Positions 23,361 to 26,447 of a DNA stretch of 64,000 nt are shown piece by piece. The notes under the pieces are model-generated. The model was not told the DNA's origin. It saw only the letters and a program-made list of their open reading frames with translations, and did not search any database. Position numbers and translations under genes: made by a program. The stretch is from Candidatus Latescibacterota bacterium (GTDB lineage Bacteria > Latescibacterota > UBA2968 > UBA8231): NCBI GenBank assembly GCA_965208105.1, contig OZ242318.1, positions 1,472,001-1,536,000 on the forward strand. Reading direction: 5' to 3'. Numbering within the stretch: the stretch's first letter is position 1; each line of letters starts with the position of its first letter.

Positions 23361-26300
23361 ATGAGTCTTTCTTTGAAGGCGCCGTGGCACAAGATTTCGT
23401 GGGATGCATTCGTGCAGAAGGGATTGCCCGACCTGTTGGCGGAGCGGATGCCGCTGGCGGGATACCGGGTGGTGTCGAAGGACGAGTACGTCTGTGAATT
23501 GCGCCTTGGGATCCAGGGAGGTCAGGAGGTCTTCTACGCGAACATTCCCCAGCCCGACGAATGGGGCCGGTTCAAGGTGGACGGCTTTTTCCGAATGGTT
23601 GTTCCGGCGCCGACGGAGGTGGATCTCGAGCGTGCCGAGATCCGCTGTGTGGGCGAGCAATTGCTCGATTATATCGCCCGGCGGCTGGAAAACATGCCGG
23701 TTATGCCGGGAGGTGCTGTCGCAACATTGATGCCGCTGGGGGATTGGATCCACGCATTTTTTACAGACGAACCCACCTCCCAGTATTTGCAGGCGACCAA
23801 CCTGCACGATATGTACGTCCACCTGCGCCGGCTGAACATGATCCCCATTTTCGGCGAGGCCACGGAGGGGGTGGAAAATTTCTATCATCCATCGCACCAC
23901 GGACGGGTCTGTCCTTACTGCACTCCGGAAGGACCGAATCTCGGGCGGATCCTGGAGGTGGCTCAGGGGGCGGCCATCCGCGAAGGCAAGCTGGTGATCG
24001 AGGACGACGCGCCTCGAAAGCGGCTGGGCATCGGTGCTTCGATGGTTCCCTTCCTGGAACACAACGACAGCAACCGGGTTCTGATGGGGGTGAATATGAT
24101 GCGCCAGTGGATTGGCGCGCCTGGACCCGACATGCCGCGCGACGAGCAGGGCGCCTGGCACGACTATCACGTCCGATACGACGGCAGGGAAGCGGAATCG
24201 GAACCCGCGATGGTGCAAACGGGGCTCGAACCGGACGACCCGCATTTCTGGACGGGATACAACCTGCTGACCGCCTTCATGGCCTGGAACGGGGACGCAC
24301 TCGAAGACGCCCTCGTGATGAGCGCATCCGCGGCCGGGCGCATGACGCTGCCCGATCCCGTCGAGCCGGGCGACAAACTGAGCAATCGACACGGCTTCAA
24401 GGGAGTGGTGTCGCGGATTGTGCGGGACGAAGAGATGCCCAGATTGTCCGACGGCACCCCGGTTGAACTCATCGTCAGCGTGTGCGGTCTGCCGTCGCGG
24501 CTGAACATCGGCCAGCTGCGGGAAGCCGTCGCCGGGCGCATTGCGAAGGCCGAGGGAAAGCCGCTTGTCGTTCCCGTGCTCGAGGCGCCGAAGGACGACG
24601 AGATTCGCGCCCGCCTGAAGGCCCGCGGGCTCGCGCAGGATGGAATGGATTCTTTGACCTTGAATGGTGAAACGCTGCCGCGCCGCACCACGGTGGGGTG
24701 GGTCTACTGGGGGCGCACCTTTCATCTGGCCGCGGACAAGATTCACGCGGCGGTAACGCCGGACCAACCCTGCCAGGAGTTGGATGAGGCTGATTTTCTG
24801 GCGCTGCAGGAGGCGGGTGCATTCGGGGTCGTGGGCGACCTGTTCAACACCTGCGCCAGGGACCGGAGCGATTCCCATACCCTGGCCGGCCGCGTCGCCT
24901 CGGGACCCGTTGCCGCTGCAGCCCCCTCCCCCCAGTTCGACGATCTTGTGAACGAGTTGTCGAAAGCCGGGGTGGCCGTCGAGCTGGGTGAACACGGGGC
25001 GCGGTTTTCGCTGAGACGGGGTGGAGAGTTGGACCTTGCCCTGCCGGTCCCGCACCCGTGGCTGCCGGGACATTCGCTGATCCACGTGGGCGGGAATGAC
25101 GTGCCCGGCGCACTGCGGCAGTCGAACAGGCGCCTGAGCGAGATGATCGCCAGTGATGCGCCGGAGGTGCTGGTGCGGCGCGCCCTTGAAACCCTGTCCG
25201 GGCGCGTTCGCTCATATTGCCGCTTGCCGCGATTGAGATTTCGGGCGCGCACCTTGTTCAGCGGGCGTTCGGTGGCCGTACCCGCCCCGGAATTGAGATA
25301 CGATCAGGTCGGTGTGCCCGAAAAGATGGCGTGGGCCTTGTTCGGACCGTTCGCCGCGCGTACCGTGGGCGGCGAAGCAGTGGACCGGAGGTCGAAAGTG
25401 GCCAGGGAAGCACTGGATGCAGCCATGGCCGATCTTTGGGCCGTGGTCCTGCGCAAACCCACGGTTTCGCCGACGGCATTCGTGGCCTGCCAGCCGCTGC
25501 GCGTCGAGGGAAACGCCATTCGCGTTTCCGTGTCGAATTGCCATATGCTGGATATGGACTTTGACGGTGACCAGGTGGCGGTCTTCGTGCCGGTTACCGA
25601 GGCCGGCCAGCGCTCGGCCGCGGATCGCCTGTCGGCAGTCGCGCACCTTGCCCGGGACCCGGGCCTGATCGCCCGCGAAAAAATTCACCCAATGCACGAC
25701 GCCATGTTCGGTCTGGCGTACACCAGCATGACGGACGAAGGTCTGGGGCAGATTGGAGCGATCGTCGGGGAAGAGATCGAGCGCGAGGGATTGTTCGTCG
25801 GCAAGAATCAGGTGATGGCCTGGCTGGCGAACGCGATGGCAGGCGATGGGGCTGAAGCCGCATTGAATATGGCGGCGCAACTGCGGGAAAGGGGATTTGA
25901 AGCCGCGCGTAAAACCGGCGCTTCGATGAGCGCGTTCATCGGCTCGTCCCTCCATTGCCCCGATCCTCCCAAGGGCGATGGCCCGGACGTCTGGCGCGAC
26001 TATCCCGACGAGGTATCGGCGATGTTGGCGCAGTTTCGCGGGTTTGACGACGACGACCTCGGGATTCCCGCCCTCCTGGCCCAGTGCGGCGCGCGGGGAA
26101 ACTGGCAGCAGATCAGGCTATACGTGGCACCTCAGGGCGTAGCCCGGAACGCCCTGGGCGGATTCACGCCGCTGAAGCACGGATTTAGAGAAGGGCTCAC
26201 CCCGGAGGAGCTTTTTGCGCGGTCGTTTGCCGCGCGCTGGGGTCTGGCCAACGCCCTGGCCGAGATGATGGCGATCCAGAGCGACCTGGAAACCCGGGGC

Positions 26301-26447
26301 GCTCCCGCCGGCTACGGGGTTCTGGCGCGGGCGCGCAGGTCGGAAACACCGGGCTTCGTATTCGCCCGCGCCGCGGAAAAGGGCGAGAGCGATCCATTGA
26401 CCGACGAGTACAGCCGGTTATTCGCGGGGTTGGGGATTGACGGTTGA
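23361..26447 (+). CDS. Miniature single-chain RNA polymerase beta/beta'-like fusion protein (~1028 aa)
   Basis: AGGAGG RBS, ATG 23361, uninterrupted ORF. Colinear RpoB motifs ([82 protein letters not shown]) followed by RpoC motifs (FSGRSV; RKPT; DFDGDQ at 25557-25574; GARG; FREGL). Confidence 0.93.

Follow-up and report, generated by a model that had tools for sequence, protein, structure and literature searches.

A σ-linked, fused β::β′ mini RNA polymerase homologue without a trigger loop on a Latescibacterota chromosome

In all cellular multisubunit RNA polymerases the trigger loop is regarded as the element central to catalysis and fidelity, and to our knowledge the few two-barrel enzymes that work without it are phage, plasmid or RNA-silencing enzymes, which are very remote in sequence. 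A gene of Candidatus Latescibacterota bacterium (assembly GCA_965208105.1) raises the question of what an enzyme of bacterial type becomes when this element is missing. The gene lies in a 64,000-nucleotide stretch of contig OZ242318.1 (positions 1,472,001 to 1,536,000 of the forward strand; hereafter the window), encodes a reduced β subunit fused to a reduced β′ subunit, and stands next to a gene for an extracytoplasmic function (ECF) sigma factor. An earlier note on this DNA, made from the letters alone, had described a mini RNA polymerase with no trigger loop and an altered metal-binding motif, and had proposed unusual chemistry for it. We read the open reading frame (ORF) as an active, sigma-linked, trigger-loop-less accessory single-chain two-barrel RNA polymerase, and assign to this reading a probability of roughly 55%. 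The gene and its first half are located as follows, in window coordinates.

23358–26447, plus strand: fused β::β′ mini RNA polymerase, 1029 amino acids (aa) counted from TTG, identified by Pfam and alignment
23358–25022, plus strand: β-like half (residues 1–555) with the fork (Rpb2_3) region, the β barrel with ED and GDK..RHG.KG, and the β C-terminal anchor, delimited by VIA-align and hhalign

The conserved start is probably the ATG at 23361, 7–8 nt downstream of AGGAGG, as M2 is invariant in an alignment of 35 sequences. Pfam recognizes a β part followed by a β′ part (Rpb2_6, PF00562, 8.2e-40; Rpb1_2, PF00623, 8.9e-14; Rpb2_3, 7.4e-08), with scores far under the NCBIfam cut-offs for rpoC (TIGR02386, 100.3 vs 963.5 bits) and rpoB (TIGR02013, 179.9 vs 801.15 bits). 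The order of the two parts is that of the full-length rpoB-rpoC fusions of about 2840–2890 aa (PRK14844, PRK09603). Those proteins, however, are complete subunits joined end to end, whereas the present one has about one third of their length and scores 178.7 against a cut-off of 4632 and 168.2 against 5372. Canonical rpoB (1264 aa) and rpoC (1363 aa) are found as separate full-length genes 3.2 Mb away in the same 4.85-Mb genome, and the mini polymerase is therefore an accessory enzyme to the normal rpoB and rpoC of its genome.

The AlphaFold2 model of the whole protein, built on 35 relatives, has a mean predicted local distance difference test score (pLDDT) of 90.7 and a predicted template modelling score (pTM) of 0.89; the β′ half (residues 556–1029) was also folded separately (pLDDT 83.6). 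The N-terminal 520 residues superpose end to end on β and Rpb2 chains with VIA-align Z values of 28–30 and root mean square deviation (rmsd) values of 2.3–3.0. The superposition on 6x26_I, for instance, has a Z of 28.5, an rmsd of 2.4 and 32% identity over 494 aligned residues (model 1..521 to chain 7..1317), and hhalign pairs the β half with the genome's own β at E 9.9e-67. The β′ half superposes on bacterial β′ with Z 27–28 over about 400 residues, as exemplified by 6psq_J (Z 27.8, rmsd 7.4, 401 residues aligned, model 1..473 to E. coli β′ 103..1362). The features of the two-barrel superfamily are all present: a β-type barrel, a β′-type barrel with a DxDGD loop, and a bridge helix after the F-loop/funnel. 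Retained are both double-psi β-barrels with the residues that bind metal and phosphate, switch 2 (seen in the hhalign comparison of the β′ half with the genome's own β′), the lid region, the clamp helices, the F-loop, the full-length bridge helix and the block at the extreme C-terminus. Lost from the beginning of β′ are ~100 residues, as the hhalign and VIA alignments to β′ begin at about residue 100, and the loop missing on the β′ side is presumably the rudder. These two losses, like those of the trigger loop, the jaw, the first rim helix and the entire β flap, extend throughout the family.

Core identity to bacterial β and β′ amounts to 30–43%; a viral fold library returned remote matches only, at 8–18% identity, and PHROGs returned RNA polymerase families only. 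Because bacterial β and β′ are much closer than any viral polymerase, the comparison points to bacterial rpoB and rpoC as the ancestors, which would have been fused and strongly reduced. Among the viral fold library matches of the whole model, rank 29 is a phage 'minor tail protein' of 1423 aa.

The losses from the β′ half are concentrated around and behind the bridge helix, where the following elements were delimited.

25938–26030, plus strand: rim-helix remnant (residues 861–891), the first helix replaced by a loop and the second partly kept, from an hhalign gap and the model
26202–26297, plus strand: bridge helix (residues 949–980), N-half conserved, C-half diverged yet helical, from DSSP on the model and phmmer
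26298–26315, plus strand: linker GAPAGY, six to seven residues in place of about 500 β′ residues (trigger loop, jaw and insertions), from the model, VIA and the family alignment
26316–26444, plus strand: conserved C-terminal block (residues 987–1029), probably the counterpart of β′ region H, from alignment and VIA ranges

Residues 877–977 align to M. smegmatis β′ 775–872 (phmmer), with FREGL (943–947) and ARWGLANA (959–966) matching its F-loop and bridge helix. The earlier note had recognized only the N-half of the bridge helix and had asked whether the segment behind it replaces the C-half or the trigger loop. The model displays a continuous 32-residue helix from 949 to 980 (pLDDT 93, 90, 80 and 73 in successive blocks), in which a 13-residue segment is the diverged C-half (pLDDT 73–80) and no substitute for the trigger loop. 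Behind this helix the model has just three short helices (988–994, 998–1007 and 1017–1023) and then the C-terminus. The jump to a C-terminal block within about 20 aa is as had been described, GVLARARR beginning at 987, 20 residues past A966. A cryptic trigger-helix pair was looked for in this confident model and none was found, so the loss stands.

The ranges of the structural alignments agree with this picture. Among the 50 VIA matches shown for the β′ half, 40 reach the far C-terminus (E. coli 103 to ~1362; T. thermophilus 91 to 1477) and 10 stop at model residues 423–427; nine of the latter end at the close of the bridge helix (e.g., 4ljz_D, at E. coli 798) and one (8jo2_D) ends at 922. Whichever end is taken, nothing in the mini polymerase therefore corresponds to about 500 β′ residues, which comprise the trigger loop, the jaw and lineage insertions. 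The bridge-helix Gly962 is followed by only 15–82 residues (median 67) in 177 aligned relatives of 940–1110 aa. The trigger loop and the jaw are absent from the mini polymerase, and none of the 177 relatives has room for a trigger loop. No Rpb1_5 or other trigger-loop-bearing Pfam domain was found at E up to 1, which by itself shows little, as most weak matches do not pass the filters of HMMER. As had also been noted, the rim helices are shortened: the first rim helix of the genome's own β′ is unmatched in hhalign, with a 12-residue segment standing in its place, and the model has no helix in 854–875, followed by helices at 876–880 and 882–891.

The C-terminal block contains 12 positions that are invariant in 35 sequences (R991, A992, P998, G999, A1003, A1005, A1006, E1010, L1014, R1020, L1021 and G1024). 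Its equation with the β′ C-terminal region, proposed in the note, held in part: the same register was recovered by hhalign and the 40 long structural ranges cover it, but the sole local hhalign match of the last 49 residues to the genome's own β′ (1294–1319, region H) has an E of 0.27. The last ~40 residues probably correspond to region H, an assignment that rests mainly on the VIA ranges of the model.

The residues of the active site on which the proposed chemistry hinges are the following.

25452–25454, plus strand: R699, equivalent of β′ R425, which contacts the ribose 2′-OH, from an hhalign column
25551–25571, plus strand: DMDFDGD (residues 732–738), the Mg-binding loop of the active site, in which Asp takes the N458 position, from alignment

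Position 25551 is the first base of codon 732, and the span 25551–26447 to which the finding had been assigned comprises the last 298 codons of the 1029-codon ORF. In alignments with solved β′ chains and with the genome's own β′, D732 falls on the Asn of NADFDGD, in agreement with the note, and R699 on the first Arg of NRAPTLHR; we take these to be the positions of E. coli N458 and R425. The catalytic residues are highly conserved among the 177 relatives, both in the barrel (R344 in 177, K348 in 173, K340 in 157 with Arg in 18 more, E316 in 166, D317 in 172) and in the metal loop (D734 in 170, D736 and D738 in 174 each). NFDGD, in which the first catalytic Asp is changed to Asn, was observed in 5 of the 177 (e.g., P0076 and P0088). 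The clusters of P0088 and P0090 also hold pieces of 217–796 aa, including 696 and 342 aa on one contig, for which decay or assembly frameshifts are possible.

The Asp at the N458 position is no hallmark of the family: column 732 holds N in 90 relatives, E in 41, D in 38, Q in 5, G in 2 and S in 1. Column 699 holds R in 131, D in 30, E in 5 and other residues in 11. The two positions co-vary, the combinations 699/732 being R/N in 87, R/D in 32 (the mini polymerase's own state), D/E in 30 and E/E in 5. A subclade of relatives of ~1050 aa has both ribose-contact positions acidic.

The residue numbers agree with PMC7862312, the consulted part of which names R425, N458 and the trigger-loop Q929 as the contacts to the 2′-OH, implicates β′Arg425 chiefly in 2′-OH selection, and gives a cost of less than 5-fold in selectivity for N458S. 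In the mini polymerase, Q929 has gone with the trigger loop, N458 has become Asp and R425 is kept. Because the R425-equivalent is kept and the effect of N458S, in that part of PMC7862312, is small, the relaxed sugar selection that had been drawn from D732 is not implied by this residue alone. Relaxed selection is possible for the mini polymerase, and by their residues the members of the D/E subclade (30 of 177) are stronger candidates. Changes at the R425/N458 pair may have adjusted the choice of sugar in some subclades. Compared with four relatives, the ratio of nonsynonymous to synonymous substitution rates (dN/dS) is 0.13–0.16 for the whole gene and 0.08–0.15 for residues 732–1029; judged from its sequence, the mini polymerase is a constrained enzyme, not a decaying copy.

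The second gene of the system and its promoter lie directly upstream.

22709–22734, plus strand: ECF-type promoter TGAACC-N13-CGGTGTC (−35 and −10), ending 20 nt before the sigma start codon
22755–23345, plus strand: ECF (group 4) sigma-70 family factor, 196 aa, identified by Pfam and TIGR02937

The sigma factor has regions 2 and 4 only (Sigma70_r2, 3.8e-15; Sigma70_r4_2, 1.4e-14; TIGR02937, 112.7 bits vs a cut-off of 42.9), and its gene ends 12 nt ahead of the mini-polymerase ORF. The linker between the two regions (23055–23105, residues ~101–117) contains an acidic run followed by P-x-W-M-I-D; P112 and W114 of this motif do not vary among the 22 sigmas compared, which represent four phyla. 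The pairing was followed through 22 loci, namely the window, 17 loci from 16 genomes of the phylum, and loci from Poribacteria, two Latescibacterota and one Caldilineaceae metagenome-assembled genome (MAG). Each of the 22 loci has a co-diverging sigma orthologue (41–80% identity) upstream of the polymerase gene and on its strand, in 20 of them immediately next to it. Beyond this pair the 22 loci have no conserved neighbour, the remaining clusters being antisense shadow ORFs or variable genes. An ECF sigma usually has a co-transcribed anti-sigma factor, although this is not obligatory; no anti-sigma-like gene is conserved beside the module in the 22 loci, and the sole conserved neighbour of the sigma gene is the mini polymerase.

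Variants of the arrangement were also observed. The same-genus locus L116:6033-7793 (genome G107) has a 586-aa ABC-exporter-like ORF between sigma and mini polymerase, together with a sigma ORF that bears a 30-residue foreign tail; at another locus (L131) the two genes are ~590 nt apart. Two diverged copies of the module, each including a sigma gene of its own, are present in one 8.4-Mb genome (G071; L120 and L121); their polymerases are 46% and 38% identical to the window protein.

The exact pattern TGAAC-N15-GGTGTC is found at most 300 nt upstream of sigma in 17 of the 22 loci, with near variants in the other 5, and all 16 exact matches on both strands of the 752 kb of the 21 comparison loci are those upstream sites. 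The mini polymerase is thus predicted to be co-transcribed with its dedicated ECF sigma from a promoter that is conserved across phyla. A genome scan with a position weight matrix (PWM) built on 19 distinct training sites, the window's own included, gave 29.4 bits for the window site and 17.7, 17.1 and 16.7 bits for the next ones, all of which are inside long ORFs; sites of at least 16 bits numbered 4 in the genome and 0 in reversed controls. The promoter is the only strong site of its kind in the 4.85-Mb genome. The exact pattern has 6 matches in this genome vs 2 in a reversed control. A second full-consensus site (314469–314494) was considered as a regulon promoter and discarded, as it lies within a 358-aa ORF. 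In five other genomes a stricter pattern gave 1–3 matches each and 0 in controls, the operon promoter always being included, and the genes downstream of the remaining sites in these genomes have none in common. As judged from these scans, the module is a putatively self-activated two-gene unit without a detectable further regulon.

Two further sites deserve a record. TGAACA-N13-CGGTGTC occurs in the same genome at G000:C1:4091099-4091124 (L135:1100-1125), within the 98-nt gap that precedes an accA-like carboxyltransferase gene and 48 nt ahead of that gene. A congeneric genome has a similar word; the site could be a secondary promoter of low strength or simply intergenic sequence that is conserved, and was given no weight. 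Genome G010 (L137 and L138) has the same 26-nt promoter-like word twice with near-identical flanks, apparently within a repeated element, and the downstream ORFs are short and unshared with other genomes. As for expression, eight short contigs of a metatranscriptome library fall on both genes, a weak hint for which DNA carry-over is possible; stretches of the genes without contigs in metatranscriptome run X20 carry no meaning.

How a sigma factor could use this polymerase depends on two regions of the chain, which have fared differently.

24339–24347, plus strand: site of the β flap deletion (residues 328–330), from hhalign to the genome's own β
25107–25217, plus strand: clamp-helix hairpin (residues 584–620), from hhalign and the model helices 584–598 and 603–620

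In bacterial RNA polymerase the β flap tip docks sigma region 4 and the β′ clamp helices dock sigma region 2. At the flap site, ~240 residues of the genome's own β (roughly 780–1020) are unmatched in hhalign, and the join is uniform in the family, with exactly 15 residues between the two flanking anchor columns in 171 of 177 relatives. The clamp helices are kept nearly motif for motif: hhalign pairs a 28-residue stretch with a 30-residue stretch of the genome's own β′, and N590, P602 and L605 of the hairpin are invariant in 35 sequences. A complex of the sigma factor with the β′ half was predicted from custom alignments and scored 0.44 (runs 0.40, 0.44 and 0.47) vs 0.00 for the best control, which is weak support; at least 31% of contacts are common to the runs, with a partner pLDDT of 63 or more. 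Of 80 solved complexes, 58 pass the mark set for this score, as do 2 of 110 mismatched pairs; passing scores of 0.60 or less come from only 7 of those 80 and from both passing mismatches. Since solved sigma/β′ complexes exist, the score may reflect likeness to these rather than binding of this copy. The strict spacing of the −35 and −10 elements requires that sigma region 4 be kept at a constant distance: either the host core reads the promoter or the mini polymerase anchors region 4 in a new way. The invariant P-x-W-M-I-D motif of the sigma linker, beside its acidic run, may be a candidate contact to the flap-less polymerase.

A comparison with known systems helps to place the enzyme. It resembles a bacterial core with an ECF sigma in its catalytic core, clamp helices, switch 2, F-loop, bridge helix, ECF partner and GAAC...GTC-type promoter, and the M. 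tuberculosis sigma-H holoenzymes 5zx3 and 6kop are among the best structural matches of the β′ half. Unlike the bacterial core, it has no alpha, omega, flap, trigger loop, jaw, rudder or rim helix 1. YonO of the Bacillus prophage SPβ is, in the consulted part of PMC5467207, a single-peptide RNA polymerase that is homologous to the multisubunit enzymes without homology to the trigger loop and has only a few active-site residues in common with the cellular enzymes; it matches the cellular enzyme in the efficiency of phosphodiester bond formation, is less accurate and does not hydrolyse transcripts. As far as that account goes, the mini polymerase is like YonO in being one ~100 kDa chain with both barrels and without a trigger loop, and the same consequences are expected. 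Unlike the phage-borne YonO it is chromosomal, has 30–43% core identity to β/β′, retains the clamp helices and has an ECF sigma as its constant partner. The slow, short-product, primase-like or signalling chemistry envisaged in the note would, by analogy with the efficient polymerization ascribed to YonO in this part of PMC5467207, not follow from the loss of the trigger loop, and the analysis lends no support to unusual chemistry. A tblastn search of 50,697 phage records gave 35 matches, none labelled Bacillus, in a collection where the presence of SPβ is not established, and is no direct comparison with YonO.

Orf6 of the Kluyveromyces lactis killer plasmid pGKL2, as portrayed in the consulted part of PMC2919709, is an Rpb2::Rpb1 fusion of 982 aa that keeps the bridge helix and both barrels, has no detectable trigger, rudder or lid homology, and has about half of each parent deleted. 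Going by this portrayal, the mini polymerase shares with Orf6 the order of second-largest then largest subunit, a length of ~1000 aa, the loss of roughly half of either parent, the retained bridge helix and barrels, and the missing trigger loop. Orf6 differs in its eukaryotic ancestry, its location on a cytoplasmic linear plasmid and the lack of a sigma, whereas the mini polymerase family is of bacterial type and sigma-linked. What distinguishes this family from the other single-chain trigger-loop-less polymerases is its cellular nature, its closeness in sequence to bacterial β/β′ and its link to a sigma.

The family is not confined to this genome. The best 120 matches of the family search have ~590–1070 aa and all have E values of 5e-247 or below, and 378 cluster representatives were collected at E 1e-30 or below. 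Named members come from MAGs of Gemmatimonadota, Poribacteria, Latescibacterota, Chloroflexota and Armatimonadota and are annotated as hypothetical protein only. Within the phylum the distribution is patchy, with a match below 1e-40 in 64 of 168 genomes (by genus, e.g., 21/21, 21/31 and 0/15). The search for related loci was dominated by canonical rpoB, such that 4 of the 80 loci kept are family members. A full-length relative, covering 80% of the query, was found in none of the 35 phage and none of the 68 plasmid records matched. PADLOC returned nothing for the polymerase and weak helix-turn-helix-type matches for the sigma. In the literature searched, which consisted of main texts and not supplements, no description of a sigma-linked β::β′ mini polymerase was found, and the consulted part of the main text of the ECF re-classification paper PMC7826278, whose group tables are outside this scope, does not mention one. 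The family is apparently undescribed.

Other unnamed clusters, of 1221–1787 aa, join Rpb2_6 and Rpb1_2 in one chain, some with Rpb1_5, which shows that metagenomes also contain fused polymerases of intermediate size. A 5.7-kb contig of a sponge-metagenome DNA run (X9) extends over both genes with 101 differing letters relative to window 22000–26489, and other metagenomes that hold this segment are labelled sponge or marine. The genes that flank the module in the window, one of the enolase superfamily (MR_MLE; 21327–22625, minus strand) and one for a xylose-isomerase-like TIM barrel (26507–27274, minus strand), are unrelated to it, and neighbours vary by locus.

In the scheme that we favour, the sigma would dock on the retained clamp helices and so give the mini polymerase access to the promoter, which the host core with this sigma may fire as well. 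Nucleotides would be added in a permanently open active site, without closure by a trigger loop. Since YonO is efficient but less accurate than the cellular enzyme and Orf6 has the same fusion order and losses, templated RNA synthesis with poor proofreading is to be expected; as in YonO, it would be possible with lower fidelity. Neither intrinsic nor Gre-assisted transcript cleavage would be anticipated, nor trigger-loop- or flap-dependent pausing or hairpin termination. Asp732 would be a variant of this lineage, at a ribose contact where N, D and E alternate in the family, and with R699 kept a preference for NTPs most likely remains. Several observations weigh against an active second polymerase of this kind. 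The flap is absent, yet the spacing of the promoter elements is strict, which fits the host core at least as well, and the predicted complex of sigma and mini polymerase is weak. No template or regulon beyond the module's own operon emerged from the PWM and pattern scans. The D460-equivalent is Asn in 5 of 177 relatives and the R425D/N458E pair occurs in 30, so that the chemistry of the family may not be uniform. The assignment of region H is statistically weak (hhalign E 0.27). A stronger version, in which sigma and the ~113-kDa single chain form a self-contained second transcription system that uses sigma without a flap, dispenses with the trigger loop and needs no host core to fire its own promoter, is offered only tentatively.

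Other explanations must be weighed against an active sigma-linked polymerase. The open active site could yield a non-canonical product, making short oligonucleotides (primers or signals) or accepting dNTPs instead of producing long transcripts. All three 2′-OH contacts are affected somewhere in the family, as Q929 is gone, the N458-equivalent is D/E in 79 of 177 relatives and the R425-equivalent is D/E in 35 (D/E pairs in 30); the flap-less chain has no RNA exit channel, and a patchy two-gene unit for which a regulon was not found is reminiscent of many conflict systems. Nevertheless, we consider this unlikely: R699 is kept in the mini polymerase, YonO shows processive synthesis without a trigger loop (PMC5467207, in the part consulted), and no link to replication, mobile-element or known defence genes emerged, given the empty PADLOC result for the polymerase, the varying neighbours and the lack of a full-length phage or plasmid relative. 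Somewhat less probable still is a regulatory role, in which the mini polymerase would hold the sigma on its clamp helices as negative feedback, with catalysis secondary or vestigial. Its place as second gene of a self-activated ECF operon is the usual one of an anti-sigma factor, no conserved anti-sigma was found in the 22 loci, the clamp helices remain, and apart from the operon's own promoter the genome has no strong site. However, ~1000 residues with both barrels, catalytic residues conserved in 170–177 of 177 relatives and a dN/dS of ~0.15 go far beyond the needs of a sigma-binding hairpin.

A polymerase that copies RNA or replicates DNA would have precedents in QDE-1 (RNA-dependent) and PolD (a DNA polymerase), trigger-loop-less relatives that, in the partial sources consulted, use other templates or substrates. 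This is improbable here, in view of the 30–43% core identity to bacterial β/β′, the retained switch 2 and clamp helices, a sigma linkage that points to double-stranded DNA promoters, and surroundings in which no element or replication genes are found. Finally, the large deletions and the splitting of some relatives into fragments could be taken as signs of a decaying, functionless rpoB/rpoC paralogue, but the frame is intact, the same architecture recurs across several phyla at 40–96% identity, dN/dS is 0.13–0.16 and the model is confident, which leaves hardly any likelihood for this interpretation.

An active, sigma-linked, trigger-loop-less polymerase would be of interest because the family can be aligned residue by residue to β/β′ and comprises one small expressible chain with its own sigma and a defined promoter. 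Questions that become testable are what the minimal catalytic core is, what the trigger loop adds, and whether a sigma works without a flap. The natural N/D/E and R/D variation at the ribose contacts is a ready mutational series for the study of sugar selection, and the two genes represent a possible compact orthogonal transcription module. If the self-contained system holds true, the organism would possess an orthogonal, self-amplifying transcription loop that escapes regulators and inhibitors of the flap, trigger loop, jaw or secondary channel.

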